Shown here: positions 2,637 to 17,502 of the stretch, piece after piece | Position numbering within the stretch: the first letter of the stretch is position 1 | Layout: each line of letters opens with the position of its first letter | Origin: an uncultured virus (IMG/VR IMGVR_UViG_3300012971_000927) | Taxonomy: Duplodnaviria; Heunggongvirae; Uroviricota; Caudoviricetes | IMG/VR virus record: IMGVR_UViG_3300012971_000927 | Length of the DNA: 64,000 nucleotides | Reading direction: 5' to 3' (one strand) | The notes under the pieces: generated by a model | The model's input: only the letters and a program-made list of their open reading frames with translations | What the model was told of the DNA's origin: nothing | Databases searched by the model: none | Translations under genes and position numbers: made by a program

Positions 2637-2708
2637 GCCCCCATAGCATAATGGAAATGCGACGGCCTCTAAAGCCGATCTACGGGGGTTCGATTCCCCC
2701 TGGGGGCG
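2637..2708 (+). tRNA. Amber-suppressor tRNA (anticodon CUA)
   Basis: Acceptor GCCCCCA/TGGGGGC; D arm GCAT-AATGGAA-ATGC; anticodon arm CGGC-CT CTA AA-GCCG (anticodon 2669-2671); T arm GGGGG-TTCGATT-CCCCC; discriminator G; no encoded CCA. Confidence 0.88.
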
Positions 2709-2780
2709 CTATAAATCTGCTTTACAACCCGCAAGCAGGAACACTACAATAGGAAGGTGCAAAGAAGAGGAGGAACAGTC

Positions 2781-3299
2781 ATGAACGCGAAGCACAAGTT
2801 ACTGGTAGCATCCGCCCGAATGGCGGGTTCCGCTTTTGGTTGCACGGTGGTTTTCGTTCTGGACCACGACGATAACGGGGCCTACGGCGTTGCCGTCAAC
2901 CGCAAGGCCGAGGAAGTCCCCTGCACTTGCGGCCAATGCCCCAAGAATCCGTTCCCGATGTACCTGGGCGGTCCTTGCGACATCAACCACCGCATCATCA
3001 TGCTCCACGGCATCCCCCGTGTCGGGAAGAACAAGCTCCAAGTGATGCCCGGCCTGTGGCACGGTACGCCGAAGACCCTCAACAAGATCGTCAGCACCAT
3101 CCCGATGGACGACCACCGCTTCAAGGTGCTGACGGGTTACGCGGGTTGGGCACCCGGCCAGTTGGAGAACGAAGTTGCCCTGGGCTGCTGGCACGTCATG
3201 GACGCCACCCCCGATTTGATCCTCGACGGCGATCCCGCAGAACTCTGGGAGACGCTGTGCCCGAACACTACCGTTATACCCAAATTCAGCGCCAACTAG
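2781..3299 (+). CDS. YqgE/AlgH (DUF179) family protein
   Basis: TVVFVLDHDDNGAYGVAVNR, YLGGPC, GYAGWAPGQLENE..GCW motifs; RBS GGAGG; promoter at 2721-2750. Confidence 0.85.
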   Translation: MNAKHKLLVASARMAGSAFGCTVVFVLDHDDNGAYGVAVNRKAEEVPCTCGQCPKNPFPMYLGGPCDINHRIIMLHGIPRVGKNKLQVMPGLWHGTPKTLNKIVSTIPMDDHRFKVLTGYAGWAPGQLENEVALGCWHVMDATPDLILDGDPAELWETLCPNTTVIPKFSAN

Positions 3300-8169: not shown

Positions 8170-10280
8170 GTGGTTGGCGTTGCGAGAGTCTTGTGGAGCC
8201 TGCCCCGCAATACAGCCTTCTTTTCTTCCATTTCCCCGCCGGCACGTCCTTTCAATTCCTTCTCTGCCAGTCGCCAGCTTGCATATGCCTGCGAGACTGG
8301 CTCCTGGGCGGCGAGCAGTTCTTTTTCCAGGTCCGCCACTCGTTGATCGACCCTCGGCAGCTTTCGGTTGATCTGCCGTATTTCCTGATTAAGCTCACGG
8401 GCCTGGCGGCTGTCTTCTGGCAGCGATTTCACTTTTTCTTGGCGACCACTGAGCATTCTGTTAAGCCGGCCCTGGAGCGTCTTGGCATCGCTCAGCCGAC
8501 CCTTGGCCCGTTCGATGGACCTTCCTTGCCGCCTCACCTGGGCCTCGTATTCAAGCCTCAAGCGGTTGACCTCTCGCATTTGATCCACATACGGGTCGGC
8601 ATATCCGGTGCCTTCCTCGCCTTCCTCCCCCGGCCCGCTCATGAGCCGCGCTATCTTGTGCCCCGGCTGCTTGGGATCGAAAGGTTTGCTGGGGTCAAAT
8701 ATATCTTTATCGTAGCCCATCTCCTCGTCGCTGGAGATATAAGTGCCTGCCAACCGCGCTTGGCGGGTGGCTTGAGATCGCAGGGTGCGCACGATTTCGC
8801 TCATGTGGCGGGTATACAGAGATTTCAAAGTGCCCGTGTACATTTCCACCAGCGAGGTTGCCTCTCTGCTGGGGAGGCGATATTTCTTTGTAAGCACATA
8901 CCACAGTGCCTTTTTGGAGTTTTCCACAAGCTGTTCCATTATCTGCTTGTTGTGGGCCTTGGCGGCTTGCTGGGCTGGTCGGATCAGGGCACCGGACATG
9001 AGGATTAAATCCAGTTCGGTCGCGTCCCGGATGCGGTCGGACAAAGCCTGGAGGGCGGGCATACCGAGCGGATCGGCCCGCAAGGCGGCGTTGATAACGT
9101 GATATTTATTGCCTAGCTGGCTCTCCACGGCCTTGAGGATTTCATCCGGGGTCATGGCGGAAACAAGATGAACACGGCTCACCGCCCCGGATGTTTTATG
9201 CGGCTCCACCACATTGGCCGTGAGGCCGTGATACTGCACTTCGGGGTGGGCACCAAAAATGGGCCGCAACTGTTTGTCCTTCGGGGAGAAGGCCAATCCT
9301 TGGTACGCCGAATAACGGTTGGTCGGGTCGGGGTCGTTGGCGTACCTTTGGCCGACGAAATTGACCCATATGTTCCACATGACGCCAGGATCAATGCCCA
9401 ATTCATCCTTCATGTGAGCGAGGACTTCCAGGTAGGCGTCCGCCACTTTCTCGGTTGCACCTTCCCTGCTTTTGTCTTTTATTCCCCAATAGCCGCCCTT
9501 TTCGGCACCCTTAATCATGCGCCCAAGCTCGGCCCATTTATTGCGCAGTTGCGGATCAAGGTTTCGATTTTTGGCCATCATGTTGGCCATTGCGGAATAG
9601 ATGGTAATATTGTGGGTATCCATACAACCCAACTGGCCGAAGATCATCTGGACCACGAAACCGGCCTTGACTGTCCCGATGCCGGTAATGGGCACCAGTT
9701 CCTTTAGTATTTGGCCGAACTCGCCTCGGTCAGCCAGTTCCATGAACCGCTTGTATAACGTTTCCCGGTTATTCCAGACGTGCGAGATGAGTTCTGATTT
9801 ATTGCCTTCACCCAGGTCGATGACGCCCGCCAGCAAGCCCCCTTTGAAATCGGGGGCCATTTTGGACGCGATCCGTTGACCGCCCACCCCGGCCACGAAA
9901 TTGCCGACCTCATCGACGGAAACCCGGTTACGCTTGCGCAGGAAGTCCATGAGGACCGGGAACCATTCGTTAAAGCGACTGAACTTGGTGTTGGCGGTCA
10001 GGGGTGCGAACAGAAGCACCTGGGCGAAATTTTCGGCATTTCGTTGGGCGAATTCCTGAATATATGGCGAGTGTTGGGCGAAGCCCTGGTAACCCCGGAT
10101 GCAGACGTGCCCGCCCTTGCCTTCTTTTTCAAATACCGGGCGTGAGGAGATGGGCCGACCCTGGGCGTCCAGTATCGCCTCGGCCAAGATACGCTCGGCC
10201 ACCCTGGCATCGAACCACAACTGAAATTCGTACCGCCGCAACATCGCAGTATTTATGACCGAAAGGAAGTTTTTGCTCAA
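8166..10280 (-). CDS. Large protein with HhH-GPD (DNA glycosylase-like) motif and C-terminal coiled coil
   Basis: ELVPITGIGTVKAGFVVQMIFGQLGCMDTHN reads as a helix-hairpin-helix plus catalytic-type Asp; charged heptad-like C-terminus. Confidence 0.55.
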   Translation of the reverse strand: MSKNFLSVINTAMLRRYEFQLWFDARVAERILAEAILDAQGRPISSRPVFEKEGKGGHVCIRGYQGFAQHSPYIQEFAQRNAENFAQVLLFAPLTANTKFSRFNEWFPVLMDFLRKRNRVSVDEVGNFVAGVGGQRIASKMAPDFKGGLLAGVIDLGEGNKSELISHVWNNRETLYKRFMELADRGEFGQILKELVPITGIGTVKAGFVVQMIFGQLGCMDTHNITIYSAMANMMAKNRNLDPQLRNKWAELGRMIKGAEKGGYWGIKDKSREGATEKVADAYLEVLAHMKDELGIDPGVMWNIWVNFVGQRYANDPDPTNRYSAYQGLAFSPKDKQLRPIFGAHPEVQYHGLTANVVEPHKTSGAVSRVHLVSAMTPDEILKAVESQLGNKYHVINAALRADPLGMPALQALSDRIRDATELDLILMSGALIRPAQQAAKAHNKQIMEQLVENSKKALWYVLTKKYRLPSREATSLVEMYTGTLKSLYTRHMSEIVRTLRSQATRQARLAGTYISSDEEMGYDKDIFDPSKPFDPKQPGHKIARLMSGPGEEGEEGTGYADPYVDQMREVNRLRLEYEAQVRRQGRSIERAKGRLSDAKTLQGRLNRMLSGRQEKVKSLPEDSRQARELNQEIRQINRKLPRVDQRVADLEKELLAAQEPVSQAYASWRLAEKELKGRAGGEMEEKKAVLRGRLHKTLATPTT

Positions 10281-10325
10281 CTATATAGTCGGCGGGCGGG
10301 GTGAGAGAAATCCGAAAAAATCGAC

Positions 10326-10354
10326 TTGACAATCCTCCCCACCGCCCGTAAAGT
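10326..10354 (+). promoter_or_regulatory. Sigma70-type promoter of the pth-like gene
   Basis: TTGACA-17 nt-TAAAGT, followed by RBS AAGGAG at ~10380. Confidence 0.65.
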
Positions 10355-10391
10355 GTGAGAGTTGGCAAACCGCACCCGAAAGGAGAGAGCA

Positions 10392-10754
10392 ATGCACTAG
10401 GTTGACGAAGATCGGACCCCCTTCTGCTACCTGTTTGTCCGCACGGACTTGAGCATCCCGCAACAGGTAGTCCAGGCCAGCCATGCAGCTTACGAGGCTG
10501 GTCGTTTTCACGATTCCACTCTGGACCACCCCCATTTCGTTGTCTGCGGCGTCAAAAGCGAGGCCGATCTGCACAAGATCGTGTCCAGGCTCGACTGCGC
10601 CGCCATTCCCTACCGCATCTTCCGCGAGGCAGACCGCCAGGACGAGGCCACCGCGCTCATGACGGCCCCCGTCTTCGGGGATCAGCGTCGGCTGTTCCGC
10701 CGCTATCGCTGCCTGGGGAGCAACGGGTTCGCGCCTCTGGAGGTTGAAACCTGA
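10392..10754 (+). CDS. Pth2-like peptidyl-tRNA hydrolase with in-frame UAG at codon 3
   Basis: RBS-ATG CAC TAG GTT...; frame continues FCYLFVRTDLSIPQQVVQASHAA...TALMTAP, typical of the Pth2 fold; no ATG/GTG/TTG between the TAG and the first conserved strand. Confidence 0.75.
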
Positions 10755-10760
10755 TGTCCC

Positions 10761-10927
10761 GCCCCTGTGGTCTAACTGGAGATGACATCGCTTGGACTAA
10801 CTTCTGGCGGCTTTGCGTTGCCTGGCGGAAGTACAACGTGGGGCAACGGCTTGTCGTGAGAGGCCCTGGCAAGTAGGCCCATGAAGCGAAAGATGCGATA
10901 GTGGTGGTTCGAGTCCATCCGGGGGCA
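10761..10927 (+). ncRNA. tRNA-like RNA with ~100-nt structured insertion in place of the anticodon loop
   Basis: Acceptor GCCCCTG/CGGGGGC plus A; D arm GTC-TAACTGGAGAT-GAC; stem TCGC/GCGA; T arm GGTGG-TTCGAGT-CCATC; 167 nt in total. Confidence 0.7.
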
Positions 10928-10972
10928 CTGGTCTTTAACAAGCGTGCAAGTCACGCAGAAAAGGAGAAGAAC

Positions 10973-11458
10973 ATGAACGCGACTGAAACCCAGGTCCACC
11001 GCAGCAAGTGGGGTTACCATCCCTGCGGCAAGGAGATCGCCAAGAAGCTCCGCACCATCAACCGGGTCTATAACGCGGCCCTGCACCTGGAAGCGGCCCA
11101 CGAACGCTGGGCAGGCAAGCTCCCAGAGAACCGGGTGCAGTACCGTGCGGTACGCGATGCCGCCGGTCAGAAGGTGGGGCGTGAGAAGGTGCTGGACGGC
11201 AAGGGCCAGCCGGTGCCCTTGCCGGAGCCGGTGCGGTGCCCGATCTTCGAGTTCACCTACCACTGGCCCGGCGATGGCAAGCGGCCATATCGCATCAGCC
11301 GAGTGGGGGAAGCCATCCTCCAGGCCGCACGGCAGGCCCGGACTCCGGTGGCCAACGCGGAGGACGTGAAGCGGCTGGCCTTCGGCTACGGCGACGGGTC
11401 GGAGGAGGCGGTCTGCCGGCTGTACGGGCAGTGTGCGGCCTGGGAAGCTTCACGGTAA
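10973..11458 (+). CDS. Hypothetical phage protein
   Basis: RBS AAGGAG; HRSKWGYHPC motif. Confidence 0.7.
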   Translation: MNATETQVHRSKWGYHPCGKEIAKKLRTINRVYNAALHLEAAHERWAGKLPENRVQYRAVRDAAGQKVGREKVLDGKGQPVPLPEPVRCPIFEFTYHWPGDGKRPYRISRVGEAILQAARQARTPVANAEDVKRLAFGYGDGSEEAVCRLYGQCAAWEASR

Positions 11459-11534
11459 CATCTTGACACCAGGGACGGAGGCGGTAGAATCTTCCCTGGT
11501 GTCCAATCTCAATCTCTCCAGCAAGGAGTCGCAC

Positions 11535-12338: not shown

Positions 12339-13376
12339 ATGCCGAGATATAGAGTGGTGGTTACCGCCTCCTGGGAGGTCGAAAGCGACCTGGACGGGGA
12401 GCAGATTCTCAAGCAAGCCGTGGAGCAGGTTTGTTTTCGTGGCGAGGAAAAACGAAACTTTCGCCTGCTAAAGCGGCTGGATCGCCTCAAGGATAAACCC
12501 AAAAAAATTCGTGTTGGCGAATTCCGCCCCGAAGAAGTCATCCCCTACATCACCAAGGAGGACGAAAAGCGGACATACATCATCGACGGCAAGTCCTACG
12601 CTGTTCGGATGAACTCGCACCGCTACTTTATCTTTCGGGAAAGTTTGACCTGCGCCGCCTGCGGCCTGGTCGGCAGCAAGATGCTCCTTGAGCAACACCC
12701 CGCCGACAAATCACCGCATTTCAACCTCTACGCCGAGGAGAACGGCAAGCTGGTTCTTATGACCAAGGACCACATCCAGGCCAAAGCCTACGGTGGCGAG
12801 GACCGGCACTCGAACTACCAAACGATGTGTGTGATCTGCAACAACCTCAAGGGGTCGGCGTCCATAACGCTGGACGGCATACGCGAGTTGCGGAGAATAT
12901 ACAACGGGCATGTGGGCCACGTCACCAAAAAGGAGCTTTATCTGCTGATTCAAGAGGCCAAGGCACGTCTGGCACATGCCCGTGGCCCCGGCAACAAGCG
13001 CATAAGCGCCAAACAGCGCCACATTCACGCCGCCGACCAGAAGGCCAAGGAAGCCGAGGTTGTTTCAAGCTGTGACATAAACGTGTGGCGAGTCGGCCCG
13101 GATTTGGTGGGGCGTTCGGTGTACGAGCGGGTCGAAGAAGGAAAACATATCGCCTGCATCAAGAAAGGTATGGTCCTGCAACCATCAGGAGCGCAGGGCC
13201 GCAAGGTTGTCATCAAACTGGACGAAGGCCAGGATTGCACGGTTGCCCAGGGCCTATTGGATTACAAGGAAAACCTCATCCCTGTGAGCAGTGACCATGC
13301 CGCGACGGAAAAGAAATCTGCTGGAAGCCGGGAACAAGCTGGCGTCAATCCGCCAGTTCCTTCAATCGCTGGTTGA
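12339..13376 (+). CDS. HNH endonuclease domain protein
   Basis: CAACG...MTKDHIQAKAYGG...NYQTMCVICNNLKG; TTTACA-17-TAAAAT promoter ends just before the ATG (probably leaderless). Confidence 0.8.
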   Translation: MPRYRVVVTASWEVESDLDGEQILKQAVEQVCFRGEEKRNFRLLKRLDRLKDKPKKIRVGEFRPEEVIPYITKEDEKRTYIIDGKSYAVRMNSHRYFIFRESLTCAACGLVGSKMLLEQHPADKSPHFNLYAEENGKLVLMTKDHIQAKAYGGEDRHSNYQTMCVICNNLKGSASITLDGIRELRRIYNGHVGHVTKKELYLLIQEAKARLAHARGPGNKRISAKQRHIHAADQKAKEAEVVSSCDINVWRVGPDLVGRSVYERVEEGKHIACIKKGMVLQPSGAQGRKVVIKLDEGQDCTVAQGLLDYKENLIPVSSDHAATEKKSAGSREQAGVNPPVPSIAG

Positions 13377-13848
13377 GTATGACGCCCGTTTTTGCGAGGG
13401 CAAGGGCGGTGGGATTATTGACTACTCGCGGCTCATACTTGAGAAGGGCACGCCTTTCCTGGGCAGCACGCCCTCCTCCAAGTTCCCCGATGCCAAGCGG
13501 TGGTGGACGATCAGCCGGCCCCAGATCAAGCAGTGCTTCTATAATTCGCAGTTGTTCGCCCTCTCCTGCGACCAGGGCACCTACTACGAGGGGTATGCTT
13601 TCACTTTCTTCTTTCCGTTCCATCACGCCTGGGTCGTGTTGGATGGCAAGGTGGTGGATTTCACCCTGGAGGCAGTCGATTTGGTCGAGCGGCGTGACAA
13701 AATCAAGCCGGCGGGGCCTGATGAAGTAACAGCGTATCTCGGCGTCGAGATACCCACGGACGCACTTCGGAAGTACGTCCTGAAATATAAATCTGCGGAA
13801 CCCTACGCCCAGATGTACCATTTGGGTTCCAAGGAGCGGTTTTTCTAG
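13297..13848 (+). CDS. Hypothetical protein (Cys-His-Asp pattern, transglutaminase/papain-like possible)
   Basis: KQCFYNS...YYEGYA...HHAWV...VVDFT. Confidence 0.55.
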   Translation: MPRRKRNLLEAGNKLASIRQFLQSLVEYDARFCEGKGGGIIDYSRLILEKGTPFLGSTPSSKFPDAKRWWTISRPQIKQCFYNSQLFALSCDQGTYYEGYAFTFFFPFHHAWVVLDGKVVDFTLEAVDLVERRDKIKPAGPDEVTAYLGVEIPTDALRKYVLKYKSAEPYAQMYHLGSKERFF

Positions 13849-13863
13849 TTAAGGAGAACTATC

Positions 13864-14598
13864 GTGGATTTAGTGGTCTACCCGGTGTTCCTGTGGCTCA
13901 GCCTGCCCTTCTGGATTCTCATTCTCTGCTGGTTCGCCTTCCTGTTCTGGTGCGTGTCCTACCGGCACGGCTTCATCGCCCTGAGTTCGTTGCTGGTGCT
14001 GGCCTGCTTGCTCCAGTTCTTTGGCGACATCCCGGTGCTGGTCTACCTCTGGCATAATCCACTCGTCGCCCTCGCTTGCCTGGGGGTGTGGTTGGCCATG
14101 TCGGTGCCGTGGGCCTTTACCAAGTGGTGGTTGTACGTCCGGGATAATAGCGGACGTTACGATGAAATCCTGGGGGAGTTCTTTGAAACCCCCGCCCACC
14201 GCGAATGGCCCAAGAACCCCAACCAATTCAACCTCAACCAGAAGGTTGAGTGGAAGCAATATTTCGACCAGCACGCCAACGTTGACGACTGGTATGAATA
14301 TAACCGGGTGGAGTTCGACCCCAGCCCCCGCACCCACAAGGCCGACATCATGACCTGGATGATGTTCTGGCCCTGGTCGCTGCTCTGGACCCTGCTCAAC
14401 GATCCGATCCGCAAGTTCTTCCGCCATTGCTACTATTACATGGTGGGGTGGCTGGAGCGCATCCGCGACTACTACTGGCAGGACAAACGCGGCCACATGC
14501 CCACCCAGGCGGAAATGGAAACTTACTACCAACAGCAACGGGATGCGGCCCAGGAACGCCGCAAGCAGCCGCCGGATGGCGTTACCCGGTTGGAGTAA
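13864..14598 (+). CDS. Hypothetical membrane protein
   Basis: Several Trp-rich hydrophobic helices; RBS AAGGAG. Confidence 0.7.
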   Translation: MDLVVYPVFLWLSLPFWILILCWFAFLFWCVSYRHGFIALSSLLVLACLLQFFGDIPVLVYLWHNPLVALACLGVWLAMSVPWAFTKWWLYVRDNSGRYDEILGEFFETPAHREWPKNPNQFNLNQKVEWKQYFDQHANVDDWYEYNRVEFDPSPRTHKADIMTWMMFWPWSLLWTLLNDPIRKFFRHCYYYMVGWLERIRDYYWQDKRGHMPTQAEMETYYQQQRDAAQERRKQPPDGVTRLE

Positions 14599-14625
14599 AC
14601 AAACCGACCCTGGCGCGGTACAATG

Positions 14626-14655
14626 AGGGGAGGCTCGGCCTCCCCTTTTTTGTTT
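14626..14655 (+). terminator. Intrinsic terminator
   Basis: AGGGGAGGC/GCCTCCCCT stem plus T tract. Confidence 0.7.
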
Positions 14656-14667
14656 GAGGAGTCACCA

Positions 14668-16095
14668 ATGGATATTCGTCCCCTTCCCGATAAGCAGGGC
14701 GTGGGTTTCTTTTCGCTGGTCCCGATTTCCGACGAGGAAAAGCAGGCAAACGCGCAGGCCACCGGCTGGCGTTACCGGGAGGAGGTCGCTGGCCGCTACC
14801 ACAATTTCTACGTCACGCCGGGTTGCTACTACTGGCCGAAGCATGACTGGTACGACAGCAAGATTCACGAGCCGTGGTCGGTGGTGGATGCCTTCTCCCC
14901 GAACCTCGATAAAGAACTTCATGTCGGCCACCTGCGTAACCTGGCCATCGCCCTGTCCCTGTCCCGAATGCTGAACCAGCAGGCACAATTCGTGGCCCTG
15001 TTGGGGAGCGGCAAGGGCCTCCTCAAGAAATCCAAGGACGCCCTCAAGCGGTGGCTGCGGTTTGTAAATTACAAACCCAAATTGTACTACGACTGCCTGA
15101 TGCCGATGGACGAAGATATTGTTGTCCGACAAAAAATGCTAATGGCCAAGAAGCAACTGGACGGCTCGACTAAGGACGAGGAATGCACCGTTTGGATCAA
15201 CCCAGATGGCGAACCCATTGTGGTGATCCGTGGCGATGGGCGTCCCCTCTACACCTTTCACGACATCGCCTTCGCCAAGACCGTGGGGCCGACCCATTAT
15301 ATTACCGGCCAGGAGCAGCGCGACCATTTTAAGCGGCTCGGCCTGGGGGACCGTCACTACCCGATGGGACTGGTGCTGGGGAAGGACGACACGGGCACCT
15401 GGAGCAAGATGAAAAGCCGGACGGGCGATGCCCTGTCGGCCCAGGAAGTTCTCGACATCATCGTGGAGAAGCTGAAGGCGGGGAAAAGCAAACTAAAGAA
15501 AAACAAGCAGACCGACAAGTACGCCAACCTGGACGAAAATGGCTTTGACGACATGCACCGCCTGGCATGGAACGTCCTGGCGTGGAATTTTCTGGCGTGC
15601 AGCCGGTCCCAGGATGTAAAATTCGACCCAGACCTGTGGACCGACCCCAACCGTGGCGGGCTGTACATAACTTACACCTACGCCCGGTGCGTGTCGGCTC
15701 TGCGTAAGGCCGGCAGTAATGCCGATTTTGCTTTCCAGGCCCCGTGGCAGGCCAAGCTGATCGCCCAGGGCAAACCTGATCCGAAGGACTGGTGGAATGC
15801 GGACGGCACCCACAAAGGCGATCCTGACCCGCACTACGATCTGACCCAGGAGGACGCCAACATCCTCGGCTACAGTGAGTATCTTCACCACTATCGCTGG
15901 CGGGCCATGCAATCCCTGGACCCCGCTCACCTGGCCAATTACGCCCACGATTTGGCCCGCAAGCTCGCCCATGCGTATCATGGCGAGAAGATTGCTGGAG
16001 GCCGGTACGGGTTCCAGCACGCGATCAACTACTCCATGCGAAACCTGTGGCACTGCCTGGTCAATCTGGGCATGTTCCCCCTGGAGGAAGTATGA
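14668..16095 (+). CDS. argS: Arginyl-tRNA synthetase-like protein (compact/divergent)
   Basis: VVDAFSPNLDKELHVGHLRN (HIGH), KMKSRTG (KMSKS-like), GLYITYTYAR, C-terminal LGMFPLEEV. Confidence 0.8.
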   Translation: MDIRPLPDKQGVGFFSLVPISDEEKQANAQATGWRYREEVAGRYHNFYVTPGCYYWPKHDWYDSKIHEPWSVVDAFSPNLDKELHVGHLRNLAIALSLSRMLNQQAQFVALLGSGKGLLKKSKDALKRWLRFVNYKPKLYYDCLMPMDEDIVVRQKMLMAKKQLDGSTKDEECTVWINPDGEPIVVIRGDGRPLYTFHDIAFAKTVGPTHYITGQEQRDHFKRLGLGDRHYPMGLVLGKDDTGTWSKMKSRTGDALSAQEVLDIIVEKLKAGKSKLKKNKQTDKYANLDENGFDDMHRLAWNVLAWNFLACSRSQDVKFDPDLWTDPNRGGLYITYTYARCVSALRKAGSNADFAFQAPWQAKLIAQGKPDPKDWWNADGTHKGDPDPHYDLTQEDANILGYSEYLHHYRWRAMQSLDPAHLANYAHDLARKLAHAYHGEKIAGGRYGFQHAINYSMRNLWHCLVNLGMFPLEEV

Positions 16096-16376
16096 AGATC
16101 GGGCCTTACAAGATCACCGGCGGTCCAAACTGGAGTTTCTTCTTGGCTACCGGGTTCTTCGCCTACCTGAGCTATGCCACATGGAGTGTCTGGCCCATTT
16201 TGGGATGGTTGGGCTTTTGTATCGCTCTCATTCCCATTTGCTTCTCGATGGCCAGGTGGGATCAGGCCCAGGAGGACCGCCGGAAACGCGAGCGCGAAGA
16301 AGAATTGGAGTCAATGAAGGAATTATTCAGGCGCAAACCGGGAGGGCATGATGAGCCTCGACAGGGGTTTCGTTGA
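16092..16376 (+). CDS. Small membrane protein
   Basis: Two hydrophobic helices; overlaps argS stop and tyrS start. Confidence 0.55.
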   Translation: MKIGPYKITGGPNWSFFLATGFFAYLSYATWSVWPILGWLGFCIALIPICFSMARWDQAQEDRRKREREEELESMKELFRRKPGGHDEPRQGFR

Positions 16377-17502
16377 TATAATCGACCGGCATGACTGGAA
16401 TAACCGCCTGGGGTCCGGCAGGCCGCTCCGAGTCAAGTTCGGCATTGACCCCACCAACGTGAGCGTCCATCTGGGCCACTGCGTTCCCTTGCGCAAGTTG
16501 CGCCAGTTTCAACAAGCCGGACATCAGGTCGTGCTTATTATCGGCACCCTGACTGCCACCATAGGCGACCCAAGCGGGCGAGAAAAAACCCGCGAGGGCC
16601 TGACCCTGGATAAAGCCCAGGACAACGCCGTGAATTACCTGGCGCAAGTGGCCAAGTTCCTTGACCTCGACCGCACCCAGGTGGTATACAATCACGATTT
16701 CTTGGACAAGTGGAGCCTGCTTGGGCTGCTGGGCCGGGCGACGGTGCAGCAGATATTACACCGCGAGGATTTCCAACGCCGAATGGTGGCCAGTGAGCCG
16801 ATTAGTATGAAGGAACTGGTGTACCCGCTCATCCAGGCGTGGGACAGCGTGATGGTCCTGGCGGACGTGGAGATCGGCGGCACCGAACAGCTTTTTAATC
16901 TTCAACTCGGCAGGGACATCCAGAAAATGATGGGCCACCCACCGCAGGTCGCCTGTACCATGCCCTTGCTGCGCGGCCTGGACGGCGTGCAGAAAATGGG
17001 CAAGAGCCTGAATAACTATATTGGCCTTGACGAGCCGCCCTTTGAAATGTTCAGCAAAGTGATGTCCATACCCGATAATATCCTGCCTGAATGGTACAGG
17101 CTGCTGACCGACCGCGACCCGGTGTTTCTCCCGGAGAGCATGTTTGCGCTCCAGAAGCAACTGGCGTTTGACATCGTGAGCGATTTGCACCGAATCGACC
17201 AGGCCATCGACGCCCAGGCACAATGGCAGAAGCGGTTCTCTGAACGAGAAGACCCTGACAACCCGCCCGAAGTGACTATCGACGGCCCCGAACACACGAT
17301 TGTCCCCCTACTGCGGGCAGCCGGCTTCGCCAAGTCCAACAACGAGGCCAGGCGTCTGGTGGAGGGCAACTGTGTTTCTCTGGGCGACCGTAACGCCAGG
17401 ATCACCGACCCGCAGTGCCATGTTTACATCACGGACGGAATGATGCTGCGAGCCGGGAGCCGCCGCGTCTGTCGTCTTCGCGTCAAGGAGGCCGGGGCCT
17501 GA
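16348..17502 (+). CDS. tyrS: Tyrosyl-tRNA synthetase
   Basis: VKFGIDPT..SVHLGH, IGDPSGR, YPLIQAWDS, GGTEQLFN, KMGKS, C-terminal S4-like domain. Confidence 0.93.
   Translation: MMSLDRGFVDIIDRHDWNNRLGSGRPLRVKFGIDPTNVSVHLGHCVPLRKLRQFQQAGHQVVLIIGTLTATIGDPSGREKTREGLTLDKAQDNAVNYLAQVAKFLDLDRTQVVYNHDFLDKWSLLGLLGRATVQQILHREDFQRRMVASEPISMKELVYPLIQAWDSVMVLADVEIGGTEQLFNLQLGRDIQKMMGHPPQVACTMPLLRGLDGVQKMGKSLNNYIGLDEPPFEMFSKVMSIPDNILPEWYRLLTDRDPVFLPESMFALQKQLAFDIVSDLHRIDQAIDAQAQWQKRFSEREDPDNPPEVTIDGPEHTIVPLLRAAGFAKSNNEARRLVEGNCVSLGDRNARITDPQCHVYITDGMMLRAGSRRVCRLRVKEAGA

Follow-up and report, generated by a model that had tools for sequence, protein, structure and literature searches.

An amber codon near the start of a Pth2-like phage gene as a candidate gate for a phage-encoded suppressor tRNA

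The subject of this work is a small gene in a stretch of 64,000 nucleotides from an uncultured virus of the Caudoviricetes (IMG/VR record IMGVR_UViG_3300012971_000927), referred to throughout as the window, which appears to be part of a large phage of ~60% G+C. The gene encodes a protein resembling the peptidyl-tRNA hydrolases of the Pth2 type, and its third codon is an in-frame amber stop; 7.7 kb away lies a gene for a suppressor tRNA with the anticodon CUA. Comparison with relatives of the gene in other phages establishes that this early stop, here called the gate, is conserved, that the type of stop covaries with the anticodon of a neighboring suppressor tRNA, that TAG lies inside coding sequence, and that the genomes concerned are not recoded. 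We therefore consider it likely that the hydrolase is made only when the phage tRNA(CUA) overrides the UAG, and that the tRNA and the gated gene together constitute a conserved module of large phages that use the standard genetic code.

The gated gene in the window

A preliminary description of this DNA, drawn from its letters and open reading frames (ORFs), had reported a promoter and a ribosome-binding site followed by ATG CAC TAG, with the same frame continuing beyond the stop, and this layout was borne out. Translation from the ATG reads Met-His-amber, after which the frame is open for 117 codons, so that the product is written MH, stop, VDEDRTPFCYLFVRTDLSIPQQVVQASHAA... The features of the locus are as follows.

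10326..10354, plus strand: promoter-like TTGACA-17 nt-TAAAGT upstream of the gated gene, so called from its match to a sigma-70-like consensus (10 of 12 positions)
10380..10385, plus strand: Shine-Dalgarno (SD) sequence AAGGAG, 6 nt 5' of the ATG, read from the letters
10392..10400, plus strand: gate leader ATG CAC TAG, with G as the next base (TAG-GTT), read from the letters and the frame
10392..10754, plus strand: full gated gene (120 codons, the TAG counted as one), predicted product a divergent Pth2-fold protein, ending at TGA (10752-10754)
10449..10451, plus strand: TTG (codon 20), the first in-frame ATG, GTG, or TTG after the TAG, located after strand beta-1 of the protein and rejected as the real start

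Sigma-70-like sites number two, against 0.3 expected in shuffled sequences. No RNA structure stands out at the gate, the segment 10370-10480 folding no better than its shuffles (z +0.94). When the window was searched with a strict gate pattern (SD sequence, ATG, one to eight codons, stop, and at least 80 open codons without a start in the first eight), the Pth2-like gene was the one TAG case found, accompanied by one TAA and one TGA look-alike.

The letters of the gate were checked in Logan contigs from four soil sequencing runs belonging to four studies, aligned on positions 10100-11500; two of these runs (X1 and X2) are possibly the source samples. Contigs of runs X1, X2, and X5, from three studies, span 10392-10400 with zero letter differences. 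A variant strain in run X6, from the fourth study, keeps ATG CAC TAG despite ten other differences in 125 bases, and its upstream letters are those of two metagenome loci (L013 and L014), both of which carry ATG CAC TAG and are 93% identical in protein. A stop at codon 3 would usually be taken as the mark of a pseudogene, an assembly error, or a private nonsense mutation, and the last two had been named in advance as outcomes that would overturn the proposal; against this, the recurrence of the same letters in independent studies and in a diverged strain, and of the gate in 69 of 76 distinct relatives (below), leaves such explanations practically no chance of being correct. At the position of TTG 10449, L013 and the variant contigs of X2 and X6 have CTC. 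A strain with CTC in place of the TTG thus keeps ATG CAC TAG, so that conservation extends to the gate but not to the proposed downstream start.

Conservation of the gate among relatives

A protein search returned 11 relatives besides the window's own gene call, several of which are shortened gene calls beginning at or after the position of the TTG. Alignment-based scans provided 12 IMG/VR loci together with metagenome loci, of which the best 80 of 82 confirmed were retained. The frame 5' of the conserved 'VR.DL' motif was read in these 92 loci and the window. Three of the 93 sources were unreadable (L054 and L088 end too early, and L079 is without the motif), and the remaining 90 collapse to 76 distinct sequences.

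The preliminary description had proposed that homologous genes be aligned for a conserved early stop, and such a stop was found: 69 of the 76 distinct relatives have a start codon, one to eight further sense codons, and an in-frame stop that lies 9-24 codons before the conserved Arg of 'VR.DL'. The start is ATG in 65 and GTG in three, the remaining locus (L081) having been judged by eye. Scoring by script covered 68 gates, 66 of them with TAG as the stop and two with TAA; in 64 the start of the mini-ORF has an SD-like site no more than 20 nt away. The leader runs to 1-9 sense codons including the start, with two, three, or four codons in 18, 12, and 30 cases, respectively (60 of 68 in all), typical examples being MGFT, MKFT, MEHT, MTH, MH, and MT, each followed by the stop. 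The residue before the stop is Thr in 30, His in 13, and Arg in seven, that at position -2 is Phe in 27, and the last sense codon is biased toward ACG (18) and CAC (12). G (47) and A (17) predominate as the base 3' of the stop, C and T occurring in two cases each.

Protein identity in the gated relatives is 30-93%, invariant residues occur throughout the domain, and all 69 have mini-ORF and domain in one frame. In 67 of them no ATG, GTG, or TTG occurs from the stop to six codons before the conserved Arg, that is, before beta-1, and the residues between gate and beta-1 are conserved as protein (TP[FY]xY, extending to TP[FY]xYxFVR.DL). In seven loci (L001, at position 386410 of its parent record G001, and L007, L008, L009, L010, L033, and L083) a second in-frame TAG occurs inside the domain. 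It falls at one homologous site, in the loop between helix 1 and strand 2 ('PP-stop-xEHPH') before the invariant HPH motif, and the residues that align with it elsewhere are variable (D, E, T, P, S, Q). The leader of L081 itself holds two TAGs (MR-stop-TEKQEYG-stop).

These features bear on the possibility that the leader is a regulatory upstream ORF, at whose TAG translation terminates, with the domain being produced by re-initiation or from a non-canonical start. The leader is indeed short, has a strong SD sequence, and encodes a conserved peptide (MxFT or MxH), as a leader peptide might. Nevertheless, the constant frame and the want of a canonical start before beta-1 are not what such an arrangement would predict, and re-initiation or a downstream start cannot explain the second TAG, because it sits in the middle of the domain, where re-initiating ribosomes could not pass it. 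The unremarkable RNA structure at the gate and the covariation of the stop with the anticodon of the neighboring tRNA, described below, also argue against this explanation, which we regard as very unlikely.

Seven distinct relatives are ungated (L006, L012, L085, L086, L089, L090, and L092). One of these, L089, reads Met-His-Lys where the window has Met-His-stop, and carries a tRNA(UUA) at 8588-8664, 1.2 kb upstream; from its sequence it looks like an opened gate.

Ten additional loci (L147-L156) come from bins of metagenome-assembled genomes and are probably phage contigs within those bins. All nine that can be read are gated, and eight of the ten have a tRNA(CUA). The contigs with gated copies are binned as Gemmataceae, Pirellulaceae, Gemmatales, and Alcaligenaceae, which hints at Planctomycetota as hosts for the closer relatives of the window. 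As judged from all of these alignments, the gate is a feature of the whole gene family, being neither an error nor a private mutation.

Pairing of the suppressor tRNA with the stop

The CUA tRNA noted in the preliminary description is confirmed:

2637..2709, plus strand: suppressor tRNA, anticodon CUA (reads UAG), found by ARAGORN and matching Rfam RF00005 at 64.6 bits

Aligned with other suppressor tRNAs, it is of the elongator type, with a paired G1-C72 and a short variable loop. ARAGORN was run on all 93 sources. A suppressor tRNA matching the gate stop was found in 29 of the 32 gated distinct loci of at least 7 kb (27 TAG/CUA and two TAA/UUA), as the earlier proposal of co-occurrence had anticipated, and a CUA tRNA was found in 16 of the 37 gated loci shorter than 7 kb. 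Ungated loci of at least 7 kb have a suppressor tRNA in two of six cases, compared with the 29 of 32 (Fisher p 0.006), and across all pairs stop and anticodon agree, with 43 TAG/CUA, two TAA/UUA, and none mismatched (Fisher p 0.001); the loci are mutually related, so that these counts and p-values overstate their independence.

The two lineages with TAA gates (L062/L063 and L064) differ widely in sequence. The tRNA(UUA) of L062 is the orthologue of the tRNA(CUA) of its sister locus L084, with an identical acceptor stem and T arm and differences only in the anticodon arm, and the genes of the two loci differ correspondingly, with a TAA gate in one and a TAG gate in the other. The nearest suppressor tRNA lies a median of 912 nt from the gated gene, within 250 nt in 16 of 45 loci, and is located upstream in 37 of the 45. 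Gene and suppressor tRNA invariably share a strand, but the 79 other tRNAs in those loci are all on that strand too. An assignment of isotype by nearest neighbor, in which 51 suppressor tRNAs were compared with 101 other phage tRNAs, gave low and scattered scores.

The protein product

With its N terminus included, the window protein matches the Pfam family PTH2 (PF01981) marginally, over residues 13-92, scoring 24.3 bits (E 3.9e-5) where the cut-off is 23. The alignment used for structure prediction with AlphaFold2 (AF2) comprised the 42 sequences that remained of the 57 complete gated genes after removal of near-duplicates and of fused or exceptionally long members; TAG or TAA was read as Gln solely to keep the frame. 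The model has a predicted local distance difference test (pLDDT) score of 88.5, with residues 1-3 disordered and beta-1 formed by residues 11-17. In Foldseek, the ten top-ranking rows comprise archaeal Pth2-type chains and human Bit1, all at probability 1.00, with template modeling scores of 0.63-0.71 and E values of 2.7e-5 to 6e-4; the top matches include MJ0051, PH1539, AF2095, Sulfolobus solfataricus Pth2, and human Bit1/PTRH2. When its profile is aligned to those of solved Pth2 chains, the 'VQ..HA' helix is seen to be retained, as is the Asp of 'DAG' (D81, invariant). According to the model, then, the product is a divergent member of the Pth2 fold.

The same data speak to the suggestion that the functional protein is the 101-residue product starting at TTG 10449, as gene callers have it, with ATG CAC TAG being irrelevant. 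Public gene calls for the window protein (a 101-amino acid cluster) and for several relatives do begin there or nearby, and two further calls, P0003 and P0004, are likewise shortened. Such a start would remove beta-1, a confidently modeled strand that the preliminary description had correctly expected to be lost, and lowers the Pfam score to 18.9 bits, below the cut-off. Taken with the CTC found at this position in strains that retain the gate, and with the conservation as protein of the residues between TAG and TTG, this makes a start at the TTG extremely unlikely. Translation beginning downstream of the TAG, which had been identified at the outset as a finding that would undo the proposal, is thus not upheld.

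Standard code in the genomes

A crude gene set for the window, based on G+C content at third codon positions, consists of 98 ORFs covering 89% of its length, and these terminate with TGA in 52 cases, TAA in 29, and TAG in 17. The preliminary view that UAG is normally a stop here is therefore correct, TAG being an ordinary terminator, although its count of genes ending in TAG was about ten. Over the 64 kb of this phage that was covered, one of the two signs of genetic code 15 is present, namely a CUA suppressor tRNA, and the other, TAG frequent inside genes and rare as a terminator, is not.

Two complete relatives were compared: Cronobacter phage GAP32 (358,663 bp) and the IMG/VR record G001 to which locus L001 belongs (498,568 bp, terminal repeats, CheckV 100%). 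TAG terminates 2 of 87 ORFs of at least 300 amino acids in GAP32 and 24 of 179 in G001, and reading through TAG gains no more ORF length than reading through TAA (G001) or TGA (GAP32). Same-frame junctions across TAG are not enriched in GAP32 (nine, versus 61 for TAA and 20 for TGA). Nor are gate-like patterns with TAG enriched, there being three in total in GAP32, with no excess beyond the Pth2-like gene, and seven in G001, versus ten with TAA and 23 with TGA. Two look-alikes in GAP32, at 101127 and 311451, were set aside on account of plausible internal ATG starts.

Were TAG a sense codon throughout the genome or in its late genes, the Pth2-like gene would simply be one of many affected. A phage-encoded tRNA(CUA) is, according to Borges et al. 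(2021 preprint, 10.1101/2021.08.26.457843), a hallmark of code-15 phages, and the present analysis spans 64 kb of this phage, its late genes lying outside. However, 17 of the 98 window gene calls end in TAG, and the window contains a single TAG gate; GAP32 and G001 have long ORFs that end in TAG and gain nothing specifically from reading through it; and all 69 gated genes have retained TAG or TAA at the gate, whereas a plain sense reading would permit drift to a sense codon. TAG also terminates 9 of the 57 complete gated genes themselves. General recoding is accordingly very unlikely. Since GAP32 and G001 use the standard code, a dedicated gate is the better description. Given that TAG remains a stop in both genomes and at the ends of gated genes, read-through must be partial; because of those nine genes, either suppression is only partial or their proteins are extended.

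Cultured phages and the literature

A tblastn search found the Pth2-like family in 35 GenBank phage records, of which 11 were examined and eight are clearly gated. The leaders are MAQ in Cronobacter GAP32 and Pectobacterium CBB, MTH in Serratia BF and the uncultured phage LR756511, MSH in Yersinia fHe-Yen9-04, ML in Ralstonia RsoM2USA and Salmonella Arash, and MT in Acinetobacter ME3, each followed by the stop. In GAP32 an annotated Sup-tRNA lies 3 kb downstream of the Pth2-like gene. The copy of Klebsiella RaK2 is ungated. Because of the gate, six GenBank records carry annotation errors (L094, L095, L114, L117, L118, and L119): the gene is annotated short in GAP32 (GAP32_397), CBB (gp573), and Arash (gp84c), and is unannotated in Serratia BF, Yersinia fHe-Yen9-04, and RsoM2USA, in the last of which ATG TTG TAG precedes it.

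In Xanthomonas XacN1 (L093) and Stenotrophomonas RAS14 (L121), the Pth2-like domain is fused behind a domain of ~180 amino acids with an HD-like motif recognized by eye. ORF364 of XacN1 (243756-244595 of the record) has an SD sequence and ATG AAG TAG in frame upstream, but also an ATG four codons later; on its sequence it is a candidate target of the XacN1 suppressor tRNAs. The authors of the XacN1 report state that they could not identify the genes targeted by its two CUA tRNAs (PMC5852040), and the available text on RsoM2USA names no suppressor-tRNA target (PMC8504454). Iyer et al. (2021) noted PTH2 in jumbo phages, and the word 'suppressor' is absent from the accessible portion of that paper (PMC7824862). 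Neither hydrolase nor Pth is mentioned in the accessible text of the Borges preprint, excluding its supplements (10.1101/2021.08.26.457843), and neither 'peptidyl' nor 'in-frame' occurs in that of a 2026 jumbo-phage survey. Full-text literature searches, which excluded subscription journals, found no description of a stop-gated Pth2-like gene.

Proposed mechanism

The model that we favor is a simple one. Ribosomes would load at the SD sequence and ATG, and release factor 1 (RF1) and the phage tRNA(CUA), presumably charged and able to read the gate in vivo, would compete at codon 3. Termination would give a Met-His dipeptide and read-through the full 120-residue protein, so that the output of hydrolase would track the level of active suppressor tRNA, as in a translational AND-gate or a dosage sensor; where there are two TAGs, output should vary roughly as the square of that level. 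A purine 3' of the stop favors amber suppression, and this base and the biased last codons of the leaders may tune the competition between RF1 and the tRNA. The most likely purpose of such an arrangement would be to couple an activity in tRNA recycling or ribosome rescue to when, and how strongly, UAG is suppressed. As to why a Pth2-like enzyme in particular should be gated, suppression may leave peptidyl-tRNAs stalled or dropped and in need of recycling; alternatively, the enzyme may limit the suppressor itself.

Beyond the mutual relatedness of the loci and the TAG endings of some gated genes, several points weigh against this model. Three gated loci of at least 7 kb (L046, L050, and L070) have no suppressor tRNA in the DNA fetched, though one may lie farther off, as it does in the window at a distance of 7.7 kb, and the ungated L006 and L089 still have a suppressor tRNA nearby, from which it follows that the tRNA has other uses or clients. 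In the protein, an invariant Gln (Q24) takes the place of the 'GK' Lys, and the loop that follows 'DAG' is shorter by four residues. In work on S. solfataricus Pth2, the Lys of 'GK', the Asp of 'DAG', and a Thr that follows are reported to be catalytic. With that Lys replaced and part of the loop missing, hydrolase activity is not assured; we nonetheless infer that the protein may still hydrolyze an ester on a tRNA. Finally, the support for read-through comes from the comparison of sequences, and a search for RNA runs containing this DNA listed none. It is on these terms, as a conserved gate tied to a suppressor tRNA, that the translational switch of the preliminary description stands; the part of it that drew in a repeat array does not, as discussed below.

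The anatomy of the leader also invites comparison with minigenes of the lambda bar type, for which a link between drop-off and Pth is established. Without suppression, the peptidyl-tRNA dropped off at the leader would be a substrate of the hydrolase, and the gene would sense or relieve its own minigene load. The strong SD sequence, the run of 1-9 sense codons (the start among them), the stop after it, and the bias in the last codon all conform to this anatomy, and the product has the Pth2 fold. Yet the same leader gates an unrelated family (phrog_14850, below) and so is not specific to the hydrolase. Such a circuit is unlikely, and it is in any case an addition to the gate model, not an alternative to it.

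A more ambitious version of the gate model is a homeostat of suppression, in which the enzyme strips the aminoacyl or peptidyl ester from the suppressor tRNA or releases chains that have stalled after unwanted read-through. More read-through of UAG would then yield more enzyme and hence less read-through, a tRNA-based counterpart of the autoregulation of RF2 (prfB) and IF3 (infC), and the 'MxFT-UAG' leader would be a portable sensor cassette placed before other genes as well, including phrog_14850. We regard the homeostat as speculative and on balance doubtful; if true, it would explain why 'orphan' suppressor tRNAs are retained, at a level that is safe and partial, in jumbo phages with the standard code.

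Neighboring genes and a second gated family

The gate is not confined to the Pth2-like family. In three loci a second family, phrog_14850, is gated by the same leader (MGFT or MTGFT, then stop) just downstream (L051:4563-5588, L068:11018-11623, and L080:10304-10969), and in L080 one TAG both terminates the Pth2-like gene and gates the next. The pattern ATG-NNN-(TTY/CAY)-ACN-TAG occurs 12 times in 1.54 Mb, and eight of these occurrences have an SD sequence and a long frame. As these eight front Pth2-like genes (six) or phrog_14850 genes (two), the leader acts as a portable cassette.

A conserved gene follows the gated gene in the window:

10973..11458, plus strand: conserved downstream neighbor, 161 amino acids, motif SKWGYHPC...ERW.RK.P.NRV...AR.P, AF2 pLDDT 90.4

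Of 38 long loci, 23 have a gene of this family (130-180 amino acids) directly 3' of the Pth2-like one, and 22 of the 23 sequences were aligned. It has no match in Pfam or PHROG, and its fold none in structure searches, the best Foldseek hit in the Protein Data Bank having an E value of 0.39 and the best wide VIA-align hit a Z of 4.5, with nothing usable in the protein atlas; GAP32 and BF have no member of the family. In 11 loci an HNH nuclease gene is present near the gated gene.

The preliminary description had linked the suppressor tRNA and the hydrolase gene to a repeat array. The array (2207-2631) consists of seven copies of a hairpin repeat of ~30 nt (ATCCCGCGATGAGCGGGACGGCGTGGAAG) at a spacing of 58-72 nt and ends 5 nt before the suppressor tRNA; it looks like an array of clustered regularly interspaced short palindromic repeats (CRISPR), and no cas gene was recognized near it. 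A 14-mer scan of all distinct loci of at least 3 kb, GAP32, and G001 found an array beside the suppressor tRNA in the window only, and the proposed link is not supported. In L027 an unrelated repeat lies 6 kb from the suppressor tRNA.

The gene content of the window includes two aminoacyl-tRNA-synthetase-like genes, HNH nucleases, a helicase, a sigma factor, and a ParB-like gene. The synthetase-like genes are one resembling arginyl-tRNA synthetase (14623-16095) and one for a class-I synthetase of the Trp/Tyr type (16348-17502). Directly 3' of the suppressor tRNA is an AlgH-like (DUF179) gene (2757-3299). Two coding-like ORFs in the same frame, 13291-13848 and 13864-14598, are split by TAG 13846 and five codons; they could be chance neighbors or a second case of read-through.

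Comparison with known systems

Genes whose output reports the state of the translation machinery are familiar from bacteria: prfB, encoding RF2, has an in-frame stop near its start, and infC, encoding IF3, has a poor start codon. The gated gene resembles prfB in having a conserved early in-frame stop (69 of 76 relatives) in a translation-related gene. It differs in that no +1 frameshift is involved, the domain being in the frame of the start codon in all gated genes, and in that the proposed agent is a tRNA and not a shortage of release factor. A minigene of the bar type comprises a strong SD sequence, AUG, one to a few codons, and a stop, and the gated leader has the same parts; unlike lambda bar, its frame continues into a conserved protein, and its stop matches a linked suppressor tRNA. 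With the Pth2 enzymes (PF01981) the gated protein has in common the fold, the 'VQ..HA' helix, and the Asp of 'DAG', and is set apart from them by Gln in place of the 'GK' Lys, four loop residues fewer, and a marginal Pfam score.

A phage precedent is provided by the code-15 phages (crAss-like, Lak, and others), in which a phage tRNA(CUA) similarly reads in-frame TAG, and in-frame stops have been suggested to hold back the translation of certain genes pending synthesis of the tRNA (10.1101/2021.08.26.457843). In the present case, by contrast, TAG remains a working stop, and one small gene family, with a second in some phages, carries it; the stop is at fixed codons (2-10, mostly 3-5) behind a conserved leader, and the gene is physically linked to the tRNA. 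XacN1 (PMC5852040) and RsoM2USA (PMC8504454) are standard-code jumbo phages with CUA tRNAs, and both have a member of the Pth2-like family. What distinguishes the present work from those reports, as far as their accessible texts extend, is that a candidate target of the suppressor tRNA is identified.

A natural candidate target is thereby offered for the suppressor tRNAs of standard-code jumbo phages, and with it the notion that a stop codon can serve as a dedicated switch for one gene without being part of a genome-wide change of code. In more practical terms, the annotation of a short or missing gene is corrected in cultured phages, and because these phages carry the module, the switch is directly testable. 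The short leader and its cognate tRNA would also constitute a ready-made natural amber gate for synthetic biology.

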